Assembly: GCA_030390025.1 (NCBI GenBank)
Contig: CM059432.1
Span: forward strand, 44,580,001 to 44,644,000
DNA length: 64,000 bases
DNA from: Squalus acanthias
Lineage: Eukaryota
Direction of reading: 5' to 3'
Positions within the stretch are counted from its first letter, which is position 1; each line of letters starts with the position of its first letter. The translations under genes and the position numbers were made by a program. Of this stretch, positions 8,243 through 49,254 are shown piece after piece. A model generated the notes under the pieces. The model was not told the origin of the DNA. It saw only the letters and a program-made list of their open reading frames with translations, and did no database searches.

Positions 8243-10798
8243 AAACATAGAAACATAGAAACATAGAAAATAGGTGCAGGAGTAGACCATTCGGTCCTTC
8301 GAGCCTGCACCGCCATTCAATGCGTTCATGGCTGAACATGCTACCTCAGTACCCCATTCCTGCTTTCTCGCCATACCCCTTGATCCCCCTAGTTGTGAGT
8401 ATTATATCTAACTCCCTTTTGAATATATTTAGCGAACTGGCCTCAACAACCTTCTGTGGTAGAGAATTCCACAGATTCACCACTCTCTGGGTGAAGAAGT
8501 TCCTCCTCATCTCAGTCTTAAATGGCTTCCCCTTTATCCTTAGACTGTGACCCCTGGTTTTAGTTTTCCCTAACATTGGAAACATTCTGCCCGCATCTAA
8601 TTTGTCTAAACCAGTCAGGATTTTAAACGTCTCTATAAGATCCCCCCTCATTCTTCTGAACTCCAGAGGATACAAGTTCAGTTGATCCAGTCTTTCTTGA
8701 TATGTCAGTCTGGCCATCCCAGGAATCAATCTAGTGAACCTTCGTTGCACTCCCTCAATAGCAAGAATGTCCTTCCTCAAGTTAGGAGACCAAAACTGCA
8801 CACAATACTCCAGGTGTGGCCTCACCAAGGCCCTGTACAACTGTAGCATCACCTCCCTACTCCTGTACTCAAATCCCCTTGCTATGAAGGCCATCATGCC
8901 ATTTGCTTTCTTGACTGCCTGCTGCACTTGCCTTCCCACCTTCAGTGACTGATGTACCATGACGCCCAGGTCTCGTTGCACCTCCCCTTTCCCTAATCTG
9001 CCACCATTCAGGTAATAGTCTGCCTCCCTATTTTTACCACCAAAGTGGATAACCTCACATTTATCCACATTGTACTTCATCTGCCATACATTTGCCCATT
9101 CACCCAACCTGTCCAAGTCACTCTGTAGCCTCCTAGCATCCTCCTCATTGTTCACACTGCCTCCCAATTTAGTGTCATCCGCAAATTTGGAGATATTACA
9201 ATTAATCCCTTCGTCCAAATCATTAATATATAATGTAAACAGCTGGGGCCCCAGCACCGAACCCTGCGGTACCCCGCTGGTCACTGCCTGCCATTCTGAA
9301 AAGTACCCATTTACTCCTACTCTTTGTTTCCTGTGTGCCAACCAGTTCTCAATCCACGTCAACACATTACCCCCAATCCCATGTGCTTTAACTTTGAACA
9401 CCAATCTCTTGTGTGGGACCTTGTCGAAGGCCTTCTGAAAGTCCAAATACACCACATCTACTGGTTCCCCCCCCGTCCACCCTATTGGAAACATCCTCAA
9501 AAAATTCCAGGAGATTTGTCAAGCATGATTTCCCTATCACAAATCCATGCTGACTTGGACCTATCATGTCGCCACTTTCCAAATGGTCTCTTATGACATC
9601 TTTAATAATTGATTCCATCATTTTACCCACCACCGATGTCAGGCTGACCAGTCTATAATTCCCTGCTTTCTCCCTCCCTCCTTTTTTAAAAAGAGGGATT
9701 ACATTAGCCACCCTCCACTCCTTCGGAACTGATCCAGAGTCTAAGGAATGTTGGAAAATGATCGTCAATGCATCCACTATTTCCAAGGCCACCTCCTTAA
9801 GTACTCTGGGATGCAGACCATCAGGCCCTGGGGATTTATCAGCCTTCAGTCCCATCAATTTCCCCAACACCTTTTCCCGACTGATAAGGATTTCCCTCAG
9901 CTCCTCCCTCTTACCAGATCCTTTGATCTCTTTTATTTCCGGAAGGTTGTTTGTGTCCTCCACAGTAAACACCGAACCAAAGTACTTGTTCAATTGATCT
10001 GCCATTTCCTTGTTCCCCATTACGACTTCCCCTGTTTCTGACTGCAGGGGACCTACGTTTGTTTTTACTAACCTCTTTCTTTTTACATATTTATAGAAGC
10101 TTTTGCAGTCCGTTTTAATGTTCTCCGCAAGCTTCCTTTCATATTTTATTTTCCCTGCCCTAATCAAACCCTTCGTCCTCCTCTGCTGAGTTTTAAAGTT
10201 CTCCCAGTCCCCGGGTTTGCTGCTACTTCTGGCCAATTTGTATGCCACTTCCTTGCTTTTAATACTATCCCTGATTTCCCTTGTTAGCCATGGTTGAGCC
10301 ACCTTCCCTTTTTTATTTTTACGCCAGACAGGGATGTACAATTGCTGTAGTTCATCCATGCGATCTCTAAATGTCTGCCATTGCCCTTCCACTGATAACC
10401 CCTTAAATATCGCTAACCTCGCCAATTCACGCCTCATACCCTCAAAGTTGCCCTTATTTAAGTTCTGGACCATGGTCTCTGAATTAACTGTTTCCTTCTC
10501 CATCCTAATGTAGAACTCCACCATACTATGGTCACTCTTCCCCAAGGGGCCTCGCACCACAAGATTGCTGATTAGTCCTTCCTCATTACACAACACCCAG
10601 TCCAGGATGGCCTCCCCTCTAGTTGGTTCCTCAACATATTGGTTTAGGAAACCATCCCTTAAACACTCCAGGAAATCCTCCTCCACCGTATTGCTTCCAG
10701 TTTGAGTAGCCCAATCTATATGCATATTAAAGTCACCCATGATAACTGCTGCGCCTTTTTTGCATGCACCTCTGATTTCCTGTTTCATACCCTCCCCC
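8243..10798 (-). mobile_element. Young CR1 LINE, 5'-truncated; ORF2 (partial endonuclease plus RT) intact apart from one frameshift
   Basis: ORFs 10788-9388 (MGDFN, LGKSDH) and 9500-8346 (QGSVLGP, KFADD); tail (TTTCTATG)3. Confidence 0.95.
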
Positions 10799-11014
10799 AG
10801 AAAGAAAGAAGAAGCTAGGCATCTTCATTCAAAACCAGATCAAATAAATATCTCAAGACAAGAGACAGATTTCTATGGTTAAAATAACTACGGAATTCAC
10901 AAAATCTGGAAGAAGGGATAATGAACCACCTGGATAGGTACGGTATGGTAACAGAGAGTCAGCATAGATTTATAGATGGGTGGTGTTTTCTAATAAATGT
11001 ACTGGAGTTGTATT

Positions 11015-19095: not shown

Positions 19096-20169
19096 GGCAG
19101 CGAATTTGCCGGTGCCCAGAGGGCGGGTTTGGAGGCGGGTCTGCTGTCAAAATAGCAAAGATTGACAGTGGGTAGGAAACCTGCTGTCAACCCGCCTCCA
19201 CGCGAGTCTCCCAGATGTCGGGTCTGTCAGCGGAGAACTGACCTCACACCAAGTGGCGGGGGATACAATTCAGCTTGTTAAATGGCTTATTAAGAGCCAA
19301 TTTAAGACTATTATGATGCTTCCTTCAAATTTTACGTTCTTCCCCACGTGTAACCACTGTTCGGGGAACACGCCAGCTCAACCTGGCGAGTTTGGAGTCT
19401 GCTCTGATGTTTCTGTGATGTGGAGATGCCGGTGTTGGACTGGGGTGGACAAATGTGAGAAGTCGCACAACACCAGGTTATAGTCCAACAGTTTTATTTG
19501 AAATCACAAGCTTTCAGAGCGCTGCTCCTTCGTCAGGTGAAGTCAGCTTCGAAAGCTTGTGATTTCAAATAAAACTGTTGGACTATAACCTGGTGTTGTG
19601 CGACTTCTCACTGATATTTCTGATAAGCTGACAGCTGCAGAATTGGTGGAAAGGATGCCATGTTGCAGATGGTGAGTTTCAGAGTGCAGGAAATGTTGGT
19701 TACTGCATTTTTTATACATATACATATAGAGATTTCTTTAGCTTACAGGTTTTTAGCTCCAATAATATGTCCAGTTCCACCTCATTGGGAGAACCTCTCT
19801 CACCATTGACAGATCGCTTCTGTCATCGCAACTGCAGCTGCCATCTATTGCAGCAACATCGGTACCCTTGAAAAAATCAGACCTTGGTCCTCCGAATCCT
19901 TCCACGATCAGCCCCAACACCAACATCACCATGCACACAACATCACCAACAACATCACCAGCCTTCTCCGCCATCACCTGATGCTGCACAGGACACAGGG
20001 CATCAGTCCCTGACAACATTGCTGCCCGGGAGGCTATCACCATGGCCAGATTTTCTTCACTTGACGCTGTAAACCTTGGCTGCCACATGATGCGCCAGGT
20101 TGACCAGCTCTCCCGCCACCATCCCGCCACCATCCCACCATCCCGCCTCCTGCAATAAAATTTGCGGCC
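19096..20169 (+). mobile_element. Non-autonomous Harbinger deletion derivative
   Basis: TIR GGCAGCGAATTT / AAATTTGCGGCC; TSD TTT splits the CR1 sequence LNKYF|VSVF; internally homologous to 26443-28221. Confidence 0.85.
19416..19610. mobile_element. Penelope-like palindromic mini-element, family B, with hammerhead motif (minus strand 19504-19540)
   Basis: Inverted arms; TSD CTGATRTTTCTG at 19404-19415 and 19611-19622; empty site in the paralogous element at about 26750. Confidence 0.85.
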
Positions 20170-22189
20170 TTTGTGTCTGTCTTCACGGAAGAAGACGCAA
20201 AAAACTTCCCGGAAATAGTGGAGAACCAAGGGTCGAGCGAGAATGGGGAACTGAAAGAAATTAGTATTCGTAAAAAAATAGTACTGGAGAAATTAATGGG
20301 ACTGAAAGCTGAGAAATCCCCTGGACCTGATGGCCTACATCCTCGGGTTTTGAAAAAAGTGGCTTTAGAGATAGTGGATGCATTGGTTGTCATTTTCCAA
20401 AATTCCATAGATTCTAGATAGGTTCCCGTGGATTGGAAGGTAGCAAATGTAACCCCACTATTTTAAGAAAGGAGGGAGAGAGAAAACAGGGAACTATAGA
20501 CCAGTTAGCCTGACATCAGTAGCAGGGAAAGTGCTAGAATCTATCATTAAGGACGTGGTAACAGGGCACTTAGAAAATAATAATAGGATTGGGCAGAGTC
20601 AACACGGATTTATGAAAGGGAAATCGTGTTTGACAAATCGGTTAGAGGTTTTTGAGGTTGCAACTAGCAGAATAGATAAGCAGGATCCAGTGGAGGTGAT
20701 GTATTTGGATTTTCAGAAGGCATTCGATAAGGTGCCACACAAGAGGTTATTAAACAAAATTAGGGCTCATGGAATTGGGGGTAATATACCAGCATGGATT
20801 GAGGATTGGTTAAAGGACAGAAAACAGAGAGTAGGAATAAACGGGTCATTTTTGGGTTGGCAGGCTGTAACTAGTGGGGTACCACAAGGATCAGTGCTTG
20901 GGCCTCAGCTATTCACAATCTATATCAATGATTTGGATGAGGGGACCAAATGTAATATATCCAAATTTGTTGATGATACAAAGCTGGGTGGGAATGTAAG
21001 TTGTGAGGAGGATGCAAAGAGGCTTCAAGGGGATATAGATAAGCTAAGTGAGTGGGCAAGAACATGGCAAATGGAATATAATATAGAGAAATGTGAAGTT
21101 ATCCACTTTGGTAGGAAAAATAGAAAAGCAGAGTATTTTTTAAATGGTGAGAGATTGGGAAATGTTGGTGTTCAGAGGGACCTGGGTGTCCTTGTACACA
21201 AATCACTGAAAGTTAACATGCAGGTACAGCAAGCAATTAGGAAAACAAATGGTATGTTGGCCTTTATTACAAGAGGATTCGAGTATAAAAGTAAAGACGT
21301 CTTTCTGCAATGATATAGGGCCCTGGTGAGACCACACCTGGAGTATTGTGTACAGTTTTTATCTCCTTACCTAAGGAAGGATATACTTGCCATAGAGGGA
21401 GTGCAACGAAGGATCACCAGACTGGTTCCTGGGATGGGGGGATTGTCCTATGAGGAGAGATTGAGTAGACTAGGCCTATATTCTCTAGAGTTTAGAGGAA
21501 TGAGAGGTGATCTCATTGAAACATACAAAATTCTTACAGGGCTTGACAGGGTAGATGCAGGAAGGATGTTTCCCCTGGTTGGGGAGTCTAGAACCAGGGG
21601 TCACAGTCTCAGAGTAAGGGGTCGGCCATTTAGTACTGAGATGAAGAGAAATTTCTTTACTTAGAGGGTGGTGAATCTTTGGAATTCTCTACCCCAGAGG
21701 GCTGTGGAGGTGCAGTCGTTGAGTATATTCAAGGCAGAGATCGATAGATTTTTGGATATTAGGGGAATCAAGGGATATGGGGATAGTGCAGGAAAGTGGA
21801 GTTGAGGTAGAAGACCAGCCATGATCTTATTGAATGGCGGAGCAGGCTCAAGGGGCCAAATGGCCTACTCCTGCTCCTATTTCTTATGTTCTTATCATAA
21901 TATTGCTCATCTCACTCAACAACTTCATGATTTATCTCGTCTCCAATATTCTTCTCTTTAGTTAAGACCAATGCAAAGTACTTATTAAATACTGCTACCA
22001 TTTTTAGATCATCATCTATAAATTACCAATCCATTCCTTTCAGGGTTTACATCTAGCTTTTAACATTTCTCTTTCTACTGATATATTTGTAAAACACATC
22101 CTTGTTCCTTTTGATGTTTTTTGAAATGTTTTCCTCACATAACTAAAATGTTCAACTTCTATGCTACTGGTCTTTCGAGGAACAGCAGG

Positions 22190-29879: not shown

Positions 29880-32843
29880 TTCTTCTTAGGCAGTCCCTTG
29901 GAACCGAGGATGACTTGCTTCCACATTAAAAATGAGTTCTTAGGTGACTGATGAGTCCAATGCGGGACCTACAGTCTCTGTCACAGGTGGGGCAGACAGT
30001 GGTTGAAGGGGCGGGTGGATGGGGTGCCTGGGTTGACGTGCGCTCCTTGCGCTGTTTGTGCTTGGCTTCCGCTTGCTCCCGGTGAAGAGACTTGAGGTAT
30101 TCGGCGCCTTCCCGGATGCTTCTCCTCCACTTTGTGCGGTCTTGGGCCAGGGATTCCCAGGTGTCGGTGGGGATGTTGCACTTTTTCAAGGAGGCTTTGA
30201 GGGTGTCCTTGAAGCATTTCCTCTGCCCACCTGGGGCTCTCTTGCCGTGTCGGAGCTCCGAGTAGAGCGTTTGTTTTGGGAGTCTCGTATCGGGTATGCG
30301 GACGATGTGACCCGTCCATCAGAGCTGATCGAGCGTGGTCAAAGCTTCGATGCTGGGGATGTTGGCCTGAGCGAGAACATTGACATTAGTGTGCCTATCC
30401 TGCCAATGGATTTGCAGGATCTTACGGAGGCAGTGTTGGTGGTACCTCTCCAGTGCTTTGAGGTGCCTGCTGTACATGGTCCATGTCTCTGAGGCATACA
30501 GGAGAGTGGGTATTACTTCTGCTCTGTAGACCATGACCTTGATGGCGGGTTTGAGGTCCTGGCCTTCAAACACTCTCTTCCTCCGGCAACCGAAGGCTGC
30601 ACTGGCACAGTGAAGACGGTGTTGGATTTCGTCATTGACGTCTGCCCTTGATGACAGTAAGCTCCCGTGGTATGGAAAGTGGTTCACGTTGTCCAAGGCC
30701 TTGTCATGGATTTTGATAATCGGGCGGTAGTACTGTGTGGCGGGGGCAGGATGGTACAGGACCTTTGTCTTATGGATGTTTAGTGTAAGGCCCATGCTCT
30801 CGTACGCTTCGGTGAAGGTGTTAACGATGGTTTGGAGTTCGACCTCCGAGTGTGCGCAGACGCAAGCATCGTCTGCGTACTGTAATTCAACGACAGAGGA
30901 TGGGACGACCTTGGATCTGGACTGGAGGCGACGGGGGTTGAACAGTTTCCCGTTTGTTCTGTAAATTAGCTCCACTCCAGCGGGGAGCTTACTGAGGGTG
31001 AGATGGAGCATTGCAGCAAGGAAGATTGAGAAGAGCGTTGGTGCGATGACACAGCCTTGCTTGACCCCGGTCCGTACGTGAATTGGGTCTGTGGTGGAAC
31101 CTTTGGTCAGGATCACAGCTTGCATGTCGTCGTGAAGTAGGTGGAGGATGGCGGCAAACTTTTGAGGGCAGCCGAATTTGAGGAGGATACTCCATAATCC
31201 CTCACGGTTGACAGTGTCGAAGGCCTTTGTGAGGTCAAAGAAGACCATGTACAGTGGTTGGTACTGTTCCCTGCATTTCTCTTGTAATTGACGTGCGCTG
31301 AAGATCATGTCCATTGTGCCCCTTAGTGGGCGGAATCCGCATTGCGACTCTGGGTGGAGCTCTTCAGCCACTGGGAGAAGGCAATTGAGGAGGATTCTTG
31401 TGATGACTTTCCCTGTGGCAGACAGCAGGGAAACTCCTCTGCAATTATCGCAATTGGACTTGTCACCTTTCTTGAAGATGGTCACAATTACGGCGTCTCT
31501 GAGATCCCCTGGCATGCTCTCCTCCTTCCAGATAAATGAAATGAGTTCATGAATTTGCACCAGTACTGCTTCTCTGCCATGCTTTAGTGCCTCGGCAGGG
31601 ATTCCATCTGCTCCTGAGGCCTTGTTGTTCTTTAGTTGTCGGATGACCTTTTCAACCTTATGCCGGGCTGGGGTTGTGCTGAGATGGTAGCGGTTTGCAT
31701 GCTGCGGGATGGAGTTGAGGACACTCGCGTCGAAGACAGAGTCTCGGTTAAGGAGATCTTCGAAGTGCTTCTTCCAGCAGGCACTGACTGCCTCCCTGTC
31801 CTTGATGAGTACCTCTCCATTCTCGGCCTGCAGTGGGGTAGGACCATGGGTGCTTGGGTCATAGGCAGTCTTGACTGCGCTAAAGAATCCACGCACGTCG
31901 TGGTTGTCAGCTAGCTGCTGGATCTCCTGCGCTTTCTCCACCCACCATCTGTTCTTTAGGTCGCGAGTTTTTTGTTGGACCTCGGCCTTCAGGCGTCTGT
32001 AGAGCTGCTTTCTTGCTCTCGAGTTCTGTTGCTGTTTCCAGATCAGGAATGCCTTGTGCTTGCGGCTTATTAGCTCCTGGATCTCCTGGTCGTTCTCGTT
32101 GAACCAGTCTTGGTGTTTCCTGGTCGAGTGACCAAGCGTCTCTTCACAGGTGCTGATTATGGAGGCCTTGAGTGCAGACCAGGTGCTGTGGGCACTCTGT
32201 GTCTCTGAATCACTGGGAGTCGTCAGGTTGTTTGTGAGGCGTAGGCTGAATAGGGCTTTCTTAGCGGGGTCTTTGAGTGCTCCAGCATTGATTTTCCTGC
32301 GGCATTGTTTCTGTTGCTGCCGCTGTTTTGGGGCTACATTGATGGAGATGACAGAGCGGATTAGGCGGTGGTCTGTCCAGCAGTCAGCAGCTCCTGTCAT
32401 GGCGCGGGTGATGCAGATGTCCTTGCGGTCCCTCGCTCGGACGATGACGTAGTCCAGCAGATGCCAGTGCTTGGAGCGAGGGTGTTGCCATGAAGCCTTG
32501 TACTTGTCTCTCTGACAGAACAAGGTGTTGGTTATGACAAGGCCATGTTCTAAGCATTTCGTCAGGAGGAGGGTACTGTTGGAGTTGGCTTTCCCTACCC
32601 CTTCTCTGCCGCTCACACCTCCCCAGAGGTCTGTGTCCTTTCCAGCTCTGGCGTTAAAGTCGCCAAGGAGGATCAGCTTGTCGCCCGTTGGGACTCGGGA
32701 CAGGGATTGTTCGAGGCTGGAGTAGAATTCCTCTTTGGTCTCGTCTGTGGCTTCCAGTGTTGGGGCGTACGCACTGATGACCGTAGCGCACTGGTTCCGG
32801 GCTAGGGTGAGCCGAAGAGTCATGAGGCGCTCGTGACTCATGA
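29880..32843 (-). mobile_element. RTE-clade LINE, 5'-truncated, young
   Basis: 840-aa ORF 32841-30319 (SAYAPT, LGDFNAR, WTDH, GVKQGC, LQYADD); C-terminal CPTC..HLRTH in a shifted frame; (AAG)n tail; 9-bp TSD ACMCCCAAC at 29871-29879 and 32844-32852. Confidence 0.93.
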
Positions 32844-32873
32844 ACCCCCAACACAGGGTTTACAGGCAGAGGA

Positions 32874-33949
32874 TGAGCTTCCTCAACATGAGTGAGCAGC
32901 AGTGCCTAAGGAGGCTGAGAATTTCGTGAGAGGTAGTCGCTGACATCTGCACAATGCTGCACCAAGACCTGCAGCCCAGAGGAGCGGATGGACACTCCTT
33001 ACCAGTGGCTGTCTAAAGTCACCACCGCCCTCAACTTCTTTGTTTCAGGGTCCTTCCAGGGATCAGCAGCAGACATCAGCGGCATCTCCCAGTCGGCCGC
33101 ACACAGTTGCATCAGCAGATTACCGATGCCCTGTTTGCCAAGTCGCACAATTATATCCACTTCTAAACGGCTGAAACAAGTGTTAGCGCATGGGCTTTTG
33201 GGTTTGCCAATCTGGCAGGCTTCCCAAGGGTGCAGGGCGTCATCGACAGCACATATGTGGCCATCAGGGCACCTCATCACAACCCAGCTGTATTTGTGAA
33301 CCGCAAGGGCTTCCACTCCCTTAACGTCCAGCTGGTGTGTAACCACAGGAAGAACATTATGCATGTTTGTGCCAAGTTCCCTGGCAGTTGCCATGACTCG
33401 TTCATCCTGCGGCAGTCCACTGTGCCTCAGCTGTTCAATCCGCCAACCCAACTTTCTGGATGGCTACTTGGAGACAAGGGCTATCCCCTGAAGACGTGGA
33501 TAATGACACCAATGAGGAGGCCATCAAACGAAGCTGAAGAGCGCTACAATGACAGCCACAATTCCACCAGAAGCATCATAGAGCAAACCATAGGCTTGAT
33601 CAAAATGCACTTCAGATGCCTGGACAGATCTGGTGGAGCTCTTCAGTACGCAGCAGCCAAGGTGTCCAGAATCATCGTGGTCTGCTGTGCCCTACACAAC
33701 ATTGCACTACAGCGTGGCTTACCACTTCCTGAGGAACAACTGGCAGAGCGCAGAGCCTCCTCCTCCTCCTCAGATGAGGAGGAGGAAGAGCCGAATGAGG
33801 CTGCAGATGAGGAAGACCTTGAGGCGGCGGCTGTCCCAGTGCCAAAAGCACACGAGCATATTGCTGGCCATGTGGCAAGGGTTGCACTAATCCATGCTAG
33901 ATTCGCGCAACTTTACGCAGCAAAGACATGTCCTGGCACATGGATATGA
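32874..33949 (+). pseudogene. Harbinger DDE transposase (HARBI1-like), with stops and frameshifts in the 5' half
   Basis: [61 protein letters not shown]. Confidence 0.92.
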
Positions 33950-44145: not shown

Positions 44146-45036
<891 letters not shown>

Positions 45037-46812
45037 TGACCTGCACCATCTCTGTTGCAGTTGTAAACAGCGTATACCGAAAGAAAAACTGCTGCAAGCT
45101 TACTCCATTTTTTTACAACTTGTTGCTCATCCAAATCCTGGCACATTGAATATTTCCCCCCATCTAGACAAGTCTCTCCATCTAATTGGGGATTGAAATC
45201 TAAGTAACAATTTTATTTAAAATTCACTTTGCTTAATGAGTGACTATTTTGTAGGATATACTGTTTAGGGAATCTGCATAGATAAATTATAGTATCACAA
45301 GCTGCATTTTGACAATTATGGTACTTCGCAGATGATTCCTGTGTTTTTTTCTGAGCTTTTTGATTTCCTATCTCAAGTAGGTCACTGGCATGGAAGAGTG
45401 CGCTTGTTTAATTTCCATGGGGGTTTATTGGTGGTTCCTCCAGTCTGGAGATCAGTGCTGCAGTTTGGGGAATGGGAGCAGCAATATATTTATCATAGTG
45501 CAGCTCACATTTATTCAAGTTTAATTAAAAGCGTTGTATAACACTAATGTTTCAGGCCCTAGTTTTCAATAGCCCACAGTCCTTTTCACATGACTTTAAC
45601 CGCTGTTAGTGAAATCAAACATGACTGCCTGGAATGTTAAATTACTTTTCACTAATTGTCAATGCAGATGACATATATTTTTAATTAAAGAGACTGAAAG
45701 GGGAAAACTTATATTCATCTTGGACACTGTTTCAAATTCATGAGCACAGGATACTGTGTACCTTAAAGTTATTGGCCCGCCTGGTGAAGCATCACTAAAA
45801 TAGATAATGCGTTCCACTGTCTGTTCAAGCATGAACTTAGTGCTAAACTCTAGTATGAGATCACTTCAGGAGGCAGTCTTGCACTCTGCTTTGTTTCTAC
45901 TCTTTACGCTTTGCTTCCGCAGCATATAATTGTAATAAAAACAGAAAATGCTGGAAATACTCAGCAGGTCAGGTAGCATCTGTTGAGAGAGAAACAGAGT
46001 TAACATTTCAGGTTAATGACCTTTCATCATCAGGTCATCGACCTGAAACGTTGGGCCGGATATTCCGACCCCCACGGGTGTGTATGCACCCGTAGGGGCC
46101 TCGCAAGTGCCGGTTTCAGGCATACGAAGCGCATGCACTAAAACCCGGCACTTCCGATCTGTCAAGAATCCTCTTGACAGATCATCCGCCTGTCTGGGAG
46201 AAAGGCCTCAGCGGGCAGAGAGTTCCGCTTTCTGCACAACTTCCGCCCGCTGAAAACCTTTAAAAATCTTACGCCTGGCAAAAGCAGGCGTAAGGCCTGC
46301 TTTTACCAGCATAAGAGTTTAAAAAAAATAAAAAAAAATTTTTTCACTCATTTATAATTTAAAAATACTTTTATAAAAGGTAAGTTTATTTTTAGCCCTG
46401 TAAAAAACTTTAATTATTTTTTTCAAAAAATTAAATTTTTGTTTAAAATATTTAATTTAATGTAATTTTAATTTTAAATGTGATTTTTTTTTTTAATTAT
46501 TTAATATTTAACTTTTTTAAGTGATCCCCATTCATATTTTTGACAGATCTATGCAAAGAGACCTGTCAAAAGTATGAAGGGGGATTTAGACACATAGAAA
46601 CTAGAAAAATAGGAGCAGGAGTAGGCCATTCGGCTCTTCGAGCCTGATCTGCCATTCAATATGATCATGGCTGATCCTCTATCTCAATACCATATTCCCG
46701 CTCTCTCCCCATATCCTTTGATCATGATGCGGAGATGCCGGTGTTGGACTGGGGTGGACAAAAGTGAGAAGTCGCACAACACCAGGTTATAGTCCAACAG
46801 TTTTATTTGAAA

Positions 46813-46850
46813 TCACAAGCTTTCGGAGCTGCTGCTCCTTCGTCAGGTGA
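46813..46850 (-). ncRNA. Minimal type I hammerhead ribozyme motif (family B)
   Basis: Reverse complement of 47067-47104. Confidence 0.7.
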
Positions 46851-47066
46851 AGTGAAGGAATACGAATCGGCAAAGCATATATAGACAGAGAACAATGCTT
46901 GTGCAGCGTACAATGTCAGACGACTACAGTTAATCTTTCTGACTGTCTCTCTGCCGAGGTGTGATAAAAGGCAGTCAGAAAGATTAACTGTAGTCGTCTG
47001 ACATTGTACGCTGCACAGGCATTGTTCTCTGTCTATATATGCTTTGCCGATTCGTATTCCTTCACT

Positions 47067-47104
47067 TCACCTGACGAAGGAGCAGCAGCTCCGAAAGCTT
47101 GTGA
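47067..47104 (+). ncRNA. Minimal type I hammerhead ribozyme motif (family B)
   Basis: TCAC-CTGACGA-A-GGAGC-AGCA-GCTCC-GAAA-GCTT-GTGA: stem I UCAC/GUGA, stem II 5 bp, palindromic AAGCUU stem III, CUU triplet. Confidence 0.72.
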
Positions 47105-48038
47105 TTTCAAATAAAACTGTTGGACTATAACCTGGTGTTGTGCAACTTCTCACTTTTGCATACCCTTTGATGCCTTTTGTGTCTAGAAATCTATCTATCT
47201 CCTTCTTAAATATATTCAGTGACTTGGCCTCCACAGCCTCTGTGGTAGAGAATTCCACAGGTTCCCCACCCTCTGAGTGAAGAAATTTCTCCTCGTCTCA
47301 GTCCTAAATGTCCTACCCCTTATCCTGAGACTAGACCCCGCCCCCCCCCCCCCCCCCCCCCCAGCCCCAGCCCCAGCCAGGGGAAACGTTCTCCCTGCGG
47401 TCCAGTCTGTCTAGCCCTGTCCGAATTTTATATATTTCAATGAGATTCCCCTCTCATTCTTCTAAACTCTACTGAATACAGGCCTAGTCGACTCAATCTC
47501 TCCTCATACGACAGTCCTGCCATCCCAGGAATCAGTCTGGTGAACCTTCGCTGCACTCCCTCTATGGCAAGTATATCCTTTCTTGGGTAAGGAGACCAAA
47601 ACTGTGCACAGTACTCCAGGTGTGGTCTCACCAAGGCCCTGTACAACTGTAGTAAGACATCCTTGCTCCTGTACTCAAATCCTCTTGCAATGAGGGCCAA
47701 CATGCCATTTGACTTCCTAACAGCATGCTGCACCTGCATGTTTGCTTTCAGTGACTGGTGTACAAGGACACCCAGGTCCCTTTGTACATCAACATTTCCC
47801 AATCTATCACCATTTAAATAATACTCTGCCTTTCTGTTTTTCCGACCGAAGTGGATAACTTCACATTTATCCACGTTATACTGCATCTGCCATGTATTTG
47901 TCCACTCACTCAACTTGTCTAAATCGCCTTGAAGCCTCTTTGCATCCTCTTCACAACTCTCAATCCCACCTAGTTTCGTGTCGTCAGCAAACTTGGAAAT
48001 ATTACATTTGGTTCCCTCATCCAAATCATTGATATATA

Positions 48039-48402
48039 CAGGAAACTCTTTATTAACCGGCACCCAAATATCCAGAAATCTCTCTTAACCGGCAAAATTC
48101 TTGAGTAGGTAACCGGGGTTTTCCTTCATCTCTCGTTTAAGATTAACTTTAAAAAAAACCCCGAGGCGTTTGCCTTGTATCGGAGCGTGTAGATTGGGAG
48201 GGGAATGTGCAGCCTGGGTAGGCAGCGGACACGACAGATGGTCAGCTGGCGGTCCCCGGGGAGACGGAGCTCCGAATGCAGGCGCATTTCAATGTGTACG
48301 GGGCTCTCGTACATTGGTAGATATAACTCTCCGTTATCCGGACTTTTTGATAAACCGGCACCACGCCGGTCCCGTCGGTGCCGGTTAATAAAGAGTTTCC
48401 TG
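48039..48402. mobile_element. Tc1/mariner-pogo (Tigger-type) MITE
   Basis: Perfect 26-bp TIR CAGGAAACTCTTTATTAACCGGCACC; TA duplication; splits the CR1 sequence LFTI|YINDL. Confidence 0.88.
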
Positions 48403-49254
48403 TATTGTGAATAGCTGGGGCCCAAGCACTGATCCCTGCGGTACCCCACTAGTCACCGCCTGCCACCCTGAAAAAGACCCATTTATTCCTACTCTCTGTT
48501 TCCTGTCTGTTAACCAATTTTCAATCCATGCCAGTATATTACCCTCAATCCCATGTGCTTTAATTTTGCACACTATGCTCTTATGTGGGACTTTATCAAA
48601 GGCCTTCTGAAAATCCAAATACACCACATCAACTGGTTCCCCCTTATCTATTCTACCAGTTACATCCTCAAAAAGCTCCAGTAAGTTTGTCAAACACGAT
48701 TTCCCTCTCATAAATCCATGTTGACTTTGTCTAATCCCGTTGATATTTTCTAAGTGTCCTGTTATCACATCCTTTATAATAGACTCTAGCATTTTCCCTA
48801 CTACTGATGTTAGGCTAACCGGTCTGTTGTTCCCTGTTTTCTCTTCCCTCCATTTTTAATTAGTGGGGTTACATTTGCCACCCTCCAATCTGCAGGAATT
48901 GTTCCATAATCTATAGAATTTCCCGTCGTTGATTGGTTCCCCATGGCCCACGTGATCCCAGGGACGCTTGCGAACCGCTTGCGCCCCAGGGATACCTGGG
49001 CCTCTGTGCGCGCGGACCAGGATATGCCCAGGATCGGAAGTCTCGGGACCTACGAAGCCAGCAGGTCAGTGCGTAGATTTTTCCCGATCAGAGGCATCCG
49101 CACGCAGGAAGCCTCCGATTGGAAAATCTGGCCTGTTAACTGTGTTTCTCTCTCCACAGATGCTGCCTGACCTGCTGAGTATTTCCAGCATTTTTCTACA
49201 TTTCATTTTTCCAGCAGCTGCAGTATTTTGCATTTGCAGTGTAATTGTAACCTA

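Follow-up and report, generated by a model that had tools for sequence, protein, structure and literature searches.

A truncated head-to-head insertion of a Penelope-like pseudo-LTR with a hammerhead motif in the first TMEM64 intron of Squalus acanthias

Penelope-like elements (PLEs) that carry an endonuclease (EN+) insert as a pseudo-LTR with an adjoining inverted, 5'-truncated copy and a tail of 30-40 bp at one end (PMC8557442; PMC3846280). The vertebrate groups of these elements are Neptune and Poseidon (bioRxiv 10.64898/2026.07.22.740005), and a CX2-5CxxC linker, which Penelope/Poseidon lack, points to Neptune or Nematis (PMC8557442). For a PLE of Anolis it was described that the protein nicks and extends both strands, that two start sites bound the tail and that uncleaved RNA is used, ribozyme cleavage not being needed for insertion (PMC11167929). 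Cleavage as dimers was reported by Lunse et al. (2017), as cited in a review (PMC6765202). The available portion of a survey of metazoan PLE hammerheads makes no mention of cartilaginous fish (PMC4209133), and our literature search returned nothing relevant on hammerheads in this group, although shark PLE families or motifs may stand in supplements.

Here, a stretch of 64,000 nt of S. acanthias DNA (contig CM059432.1, positions 44,580,001 to 44,644,000; the window) was analyzed, in which a hairpin at 46723-47158 had been predicted to be a protein-free, ribozyme-bearing insert in an intron of TMEM64. The hairpin is real but ordinary, and its pattern of an inverted copy plus a tail is already published for PLEs. 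Its arms are 3' ends of one family, one with a tail and one without, which meet at a microhomology; a 13-bp duplication flanks the pair. The left arm (46759-46945, - strand, antisense to TMEM64) and the right arm (46972-47158, + strand, sense to TMEM64) are 5'-truncated pseudo-LTRs of 187 bp each with two mismatched pairs (46773/47144 and 46899/47018). A tail of 36 nt (46723-46758, - strand) is found on the left side only, and its terminal ATG (46725-46723, - strand) corresponds to the ORF start of full-length copies. The two copies of the duplication (46710-46722 and 47159-47171, + strand) are identical at 12 of 13 positions. Between the arms lies an unpaired spacer of 26 nt (46946-46971, + strand). 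The tail-less right arm extends 30 nt further inward than the left arm and the spacer is just that excess, upstream 3'-UTR sequence that the right arm has in addition; an origin from foreign DNA was thereby ruled out. The head-to-head junction (46939-46948) is placed at an imperfect CTGAyTG microhomology, which the pseudo-LTR provides through a short inverted repeat in its interior. When folded in silico, the hairpin RNA reaches -371 kcal/mol, with a z score of -47.8 relative to 100 shuffled sequences, and its longest Met-started frame comprises 22 aa. Near-perfect arms, the spacer, the 13-bp duplication and the lack of a meaningful ORF were all part of the original prediction and were confirmed, the duplication with one mismatch. 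An AATAAA is found in the right arm at 47110-47115 (+ strand), in TMEM64 sense just 3' of the ribozyme and buried inside the hairpin.

The gene in question contains a VTT-domain exon, which we take to be exon 1 of TMEM64 by sequence likeness and by the name given in the original prediction. Its coding part spans 44287-44988 (+ strand), and intron 1 starts at 44989 and has a total length of ~43.5 kb, so that it reaches past the window end. Three contigs from presumed RNA runs depart from the window at 44988 with 30 identical letters, which have a single match in the genome; it is preceded by AG and located, in the same orientation, ~24.5 kb outside the window. Because these contigs join 44988 to a same-strand exon beyond the window, the hairpin lies in intron 1, 1.73 kb from its start, with its + motif in the sense of the pre-mRNA; an intronic position and the sense orientation had both been predicted. 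A second TMEM64 exon was not detected within the window when it was searched for TMEM64 motifs; it was found outside.

The insertion is placed within the 3' portion of a LINE (46590-48084, - strand, with a weak RVT_1 match at 47437-48081), which is presumably CR1-like and whose paralogues in the window are uninterrupted. The 13-mer was present once in two of three of these paralogues, the third giving no readout, and four DNA runs yielded contigs in which 46709 is directly followed by 47159, representing repeat paralogues and not the orthologous site. Since the 13-mer is single in the paralogues, since the paralogous contigs are joined and since such duplications flank 29 of 39 insertions of the family compared with 5.5% of 200 random position pairs, it is a duplication of the true target-site type (TSD). 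Within the host LINE, an element of 370 bp with perfect 29-bp terminal inverted repeats (48036-48405) is likely a non-autonomous DNA transposon. Upstream of the LINE end, the region 46090-46590 contains several short hairpins together with a palindromic block rich in AT; it is highly repeated in the DNA runs and belongs to another repeat family. The window further harbors LINE RT/endonuclease frames at 30319-32859 (- strand), 8346-10824 (- strand) and 20453-21313 (+ strand) and a DDE_Tnp_4 (Harbinger-type) transposase fragment at 33167-33949 (+ strand).

With the right arm as genome query 602 candidates were obtained, of which 40 were scored at 97-100% identity, and upstream of many arm copies the end of an RT and GIY-YIG-like frame was present. 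When compared over 211 nt, the window arm matches the 3' ends of four copies that bear an ORF (L031, L032, L035 and L036) at 98.1-99.1% identity, and the frames of these copies comprise RT (RVT_1), DKG, a CX4CXXC linker and a GIY-YIG-like end. Across 483 aa their ORF shows 93.8% identity to an intact ORF of 892 aa, in which DKG is found at 296, CHGKLCKTC at 753, a VVYLIRC...YIGE motif and, by Pfam, RVT_1. No direct GIY-YIG match was given by Pfam for the family ORF; the domain is present in relatives. Shark relatives of the protein were found at 82-91%, and several distant ones carry Pfam PF01541. In the protein search 150 of 11,838 candidates were listed, several with open frames of 921 aa, and 16 long-ORF loci were fetched. 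At these loci the intact 892-aa ORF is usually placed between direct repeats, each with a hammerhead. The pseudo-LTRs thus stand on both sides of the ORF as direct repeats that overlap its start, and the tail ends at the ATG. The intact ORFs found represent sister subfamilies with 84-87% identity to the window arm; the 16 long-ORF loci that were retrieved, out of the 150 listed, included no intact copy of the very subfamily to which the arm belongs.

The combination of a parent ORF for RT plus GIY-YIG at the C terminus, direct pseudo-LTRs, an inverted truncated copy and a TSD is that of EN+ PLEs, and a CX2-5CxxC linker between RT and endonuclease, DKG and a C-terminal endonuclease agree with Neptune, the linker being common to Nematis. 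The parent is a young, very abundant endonuclease-bearing PLE, by motif likely of the Neptune clade. In exact searches of the genome the subfamily ribozyme core was matched 7,129 times and a family anchor 34,687 times, while control patterns gave 0 in either case. The predicted Penelope-like origin was therefore borne out by a genome-wide search, which recovered RT/GIY-YIG parent copies at 98-99% to the arm and intact ORFs in sister subfamilies. A special protein-free ribozyme element was not supported, the hairpin being one truncated insertion of this large family.

Head-to-head insertion is a general property of the family. Among 57 distinct pairs one tail was found in 54 and none in three, and two tails did not occur (0/57). 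TSDs, which are mostly 11-14 bp long, were also detected in 14 of 18 family insertions of a second set. The window contains a second insertion of the family, a mini hairpin of 198 bp (19416-19612) with a 12-bp TSD that has one mismatch; its tailed left arm ends at the predicted start site described below and its right arm starts inside the ribozyme.

The hammerhead motif predicted on both strands is complete at 47067-47104 (+ strand) and mirrored at 46813-46850 (- strand). It is a minimal type I motif with a predicted cut after 47100. Stem I is formed by 47067-47070 and 47101-47104 and is followed by CUGACGA (47071-47077) and an extra A, a stem II of 5 bp (47079-47083/47088-47092), GAAA and the palindromic AGCU of stem III. 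The core of CUGANGA, GAAA and NUH with helices I and II and a palindromic 15.2-16.2 is thus present, and for a dimer the AAGCUU duplex by itself was computed at -4.3 kcal/mol. An Rfam search, which the original prediction had named as a check, was negative, as scans with 3-kb and 96-nt queries returned no hammerhead family at E <= 10; a hammerhead lacking loop 3 would be expected to elude the covariance models. Rfam gave only generic miRNA-hairpin matches far under the gathering scores, and a miRNA reading was rejected.

To follow the motif through the family, 104 arms were picked by an anchor sequence outside of it, which yielded 46 hammerhead variants, and 20 of these were selected to span the subfamilies. 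In the 20 variants 96.5% of cells were paired compared with 21-44% in slid controls. Two-sided C-G/U-A swaps occurred at the third pair of stem I and the fifth of stem II, stem II pair 3 varied between A-U and G-U, and loop II ranged from 3 to 8 nt. The stems thus covary among subfamilies, which supports the assignment as a minimal hammerhead of type I whose stem III is palindromic. On this comparative evidence the motif is a real feature of the family, the covariation stemming from few independent events among related sequences. In subfamilies with intact ORFs (L068-L071, L075, L077 and L079) the core reads CCGACGA for CUGACGA, a U4C variant in apparently active lineages. Two hammerhead-like motifs of another family were observed on the - strand of the window at ~690-760 and 45985-46055, consisting of CUGAUGA...GAAA with CGTTAAC or TGTTAAC downstream (TCTGTTTCTCTCT). 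Stem II is imperfect in both and the first is part of a small inverted arrangement; probably they belong to another Penelope-like family.

Upstream of the hammerhead, a TATA-like TATATATG (47034-47041) and an initiator-like A at 47064, which we take to match the respective consensus sequences, mark a start of the element RNA that is predicted from their spacing and from a pile-up of 5' ends (47034-47064, + strand; mirror 46883-46853, - strand). These 5' ends were mapped for 101 arms by ungapped extension, with 220 longer arms as reference. The 101 arms stem from the first 100 hits that an anchor 3' of the cut site gave on contig C1 and hence sample one stretch of a single contig. Such extension breaks off too soon where indels occur (L125-L127, L177 twice, L180, L206 and several longer arms). 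Thirty-seven of the 101 arms end at -11 to -1 before the ribozyme core (35 after dropping two indel artefacts), with a mode at -7 (10 arms), whereas the next 11 nt upstream (-22 to -12) contain three ends (one after correction). A further 21 end inside the hammerhead motif (18 without three artefacts) and ~40 run further. A pile-up at the ribozyme cut site was not seen (1-2 of 101). Position -7 is the A in TCACTTC, located 30 nt after the TATA-like box and equivalent to 47064 in the window.

The distribution of ends suggests run-off at the capped 5' end of an uncut RNA, with a putative start site just before the ribozyme. Arm-to-arm microhomology is disfavoured as its cause because solo arms end at the same place, and stalling of the RT after the structured hammerhead motif might also produce such a pile-up. 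A further reading, which we put forward tentatively and regard as rather unlikely, is that the fossil ends of the family record an RNA beginning 3 nt ahead of hammerhead stem I and serving as template without being cut. The ribozyme would then occupy the cap end of the mRNA, where cutting would decap it, and might be a dimer-sensing brake or a link pairing two template RNAs for two-sided priming and not a template-making enzyme. No report of the 5'-end pile-up was found in literature searches on twin priming of PLEs and on start sites or TATA with hammerheads and pLTRs, which covered mainly the open-access literature. If confirmed by start-site mapping, the pile-up would provide genomic support for the use of uncleaved RNA as template as found in vitro.

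Taken together, we consider it highly probable that the hairpin is a truncated head-to-head double insertion of a Penelope-like pseudo-LTR, likely of Neptune, likely twin-primed at a staggered cut and likely inert. As judged from the insertion anatomy alone, two priming events at such a cut, joined at CTGAyTG, would account for the TSD, the orientation of the arms and the single tail. The GIY-YIG domain would nick both target strands ~13 nt apart, and reverse transcription would proceed from both nicks, starting once at the tail end by the ATG of the ORF and once ~35 nt earlier. The template would be RNA of the same source subfamily, uncut by its ribozyme, on which both cDNAs would halt ~100-130 nt upstream of the ribozyme before they are joined. 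The hammerhead itself would serve the life cycle of the parent. Two observations speak against twin priming. In eight hairpins that share the inner junction the arms differ by 2.0% within a locus compared with 3.8% between loci, which fits arm copying or gene conversion too and indicates either a single source subfamily for both arms or their homogenisation; and the two TSD copies differ at one position, as against just two mismatches in the 187 bp of the arms.

The closeness of arms within a locus is also what would be expected if one cDNA had primed itself by fold-back and copied itself as second arm, with the tail asymmetry arising when the intermediate was resolved, an explanation that we find doubtful. 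It would fit with alleles that track the locus and with the junction lying at an internal inverted repeat, as junction palindromes have been read as signs of self-priming by Arkhipova et al. (PMC3846280), and the tail is on the inward-longer arm in six of the eight hairpins. The junction sequence of 46939-46948 recurs 48 times in the genome, and the 30 loci examined (L132-L161) comprise the eight hairpins, 21 longer and otherwise normal copies with a local inversion of ~40 bp between the internal inverted repeats of the pseudo-LTR, and one other; the inversions show that template switching takes place. However, plain fold-back copying cannot give the TMEM64-intron hairpin, because its inward-shorter arm has a tail that is absent from the longer arm. 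The supposed copy likewise has a tail that its supposed template lacks at L139, and in 10 of 16 pairs, the TMEM64-intron hairpin included, the inward-longer arm is without tail. The arms of one pair moreover differ at times at subfamily-type sites, for example at stem II A/G in three of 15 close pairs listed. Recurrence of the exact junction could also mean that the 436-bp hairpin is itself a non-autonomous, MITE- or retrozyme-like unit copied by a Penelope-like protein, and non-LTR retrozymes have been proposed to be PLE-derived (bioRxiv 10.64898/2026.07.22.740005). Two loci, L086 and L087 (G000 C1, 2.94 and 3.04 Mb), have an identical inner junction including eight untemplated bases, although their TSDs differ and the arm that carries the tail is not the same in the two; a shared template or ectopic conversion may be involved. 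Nevertheless, we judge such a unit very improbable. Because 21 of the 30 junction loci are local inversions and alleles track the locus, the recurrent junction is a hotspot and not a master. In the eight hairpins the alleles do not go with the side and the tail occurs on either arm, while arm lengths in the family are continuous from <100 nt to full length and the tandem array that defines retrozymes (bioRxiv 10.64898/2026.07.22.740005) is missing. A hairpin master, recognizable by shared length, junction and side-specific alleles, was not found among the 30 of 48 junction loci examined.

Little influence of the insertion on TMEM64 would be expected. In the computed folds the pair probability of stems I and II was 0.000 in read-through RNA and likewise in nascent RNA ending at 47104, so that the + hammerhead is predicted to be locked in the 187-bp duplex and hence likely silent. 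This agrees with the proposal that the antisense arm, being transcribed first, masks the + motif. Given this stem probability, the TMEM64 pre-mRNA is unlikely to be cleaved. Editing of the predicted duplex is plausible: in read-through pre-mRNA the duplex that sequesters the hammerhead would be a candidate ADAR substrate and would be excised with the intron. That the insertion affects TMEM64 as a conditional ribozyme switch, as long dsRNA or via two outward-facing predicted promoters is, in our view, extremely improbable. The motif is intact, in sense orientation and close to the first splice donor, and the TATA-like box and predicted start are kept in both arms, the one on the - strand facing exon 1 at a distance of 1.7 kb. 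An RNA begun at 47064 would be without the masking arm and reached a hammerhead stem probability of ~0.3, and a pseudo-LTR of D. virilis is able to drive transcription (PMC2377424). However, intactness of the motif reflects youth, because the arm is as similar to 40 other copies as given above. The motif is also masked in the pre-mRNA, and metazoan minimal hammerheads showed no cleavage as monomers and were weak as dimers (PMC4209133). The contigs show normal splicing of exon 1 to exon 2, although they may come from carriers or non-carriers of the insertion alike. The idea of a likely effect on TMEM64 was thus not supported for this ordinary truncated insertion with its masked hammerhead.

As one truncated retroelement insertion within an intron, the locus is of little weight. 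The family, being young, with ORFs still intact and ends numbering in the tens of thousands, provides a vertebrate data set on Penelope-like insertion, with a strict one-tail rule and duplications of about 12-13 bp, and it bears on the role of Penelope-like hammerheads.

When the family is compared with known systems, its hammerhead shares with those of metazoan PLEs (PMC4209133) type I, a helix I of 4 bp, a helix II of 5 bp and the lack of loop 3, as well as an unpaired base 9/10.1, G10.1-C11.1, a palindromic 15.2-16.2 and families with compensatory changes. It differs in having U at the cleavage position and, in some sister subfamilies, CCGA for CUGA. Like non-LTR retrozymes (bioRxiv 10.64898/2026.07.22.740005), the TMEM64-intron hairpin is non-coding and PLE-derived and has a type I hammerhead; retrozymes, however, form head-to-tail tandem arrays, whereas the hairpin is a head-to-head pair with a TSD, and no head-to-tail tandem hammerhead units but two inverted copies only are found at its locus. 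The Poseidon element PAc of Anolis carolinensis (PMC11167929) resembles the shark family in two RT starts that bound the tail, in both strands being nicked and extended and in an uncleaved template. The shark family differs from it in the CX4CXXC linker, which Penelope/Poseidon lack, and in its ORF, which starts ~90 nt after the cut site while that of PAc starts inside the ribozyme. The closest match is with EN+ Penelope-like units (PMC8557442; PMC3846280). Both are head-to-head and truncated with a one-ended tail and a pseudo-LTR that extends up to the ORF start, and both have TATA- and initiator-like motifs in the pseudo-LTR. The TSD of the TMEM64-intron hairpin is 13 bp compared with 8-10 bp in the rotifer examples, and the hairpin stands out in that both of its copies, in a genome with tens of thousands of arms, are cut to ~220 nt, which leaves no ORF and gives it a MITE-like look.
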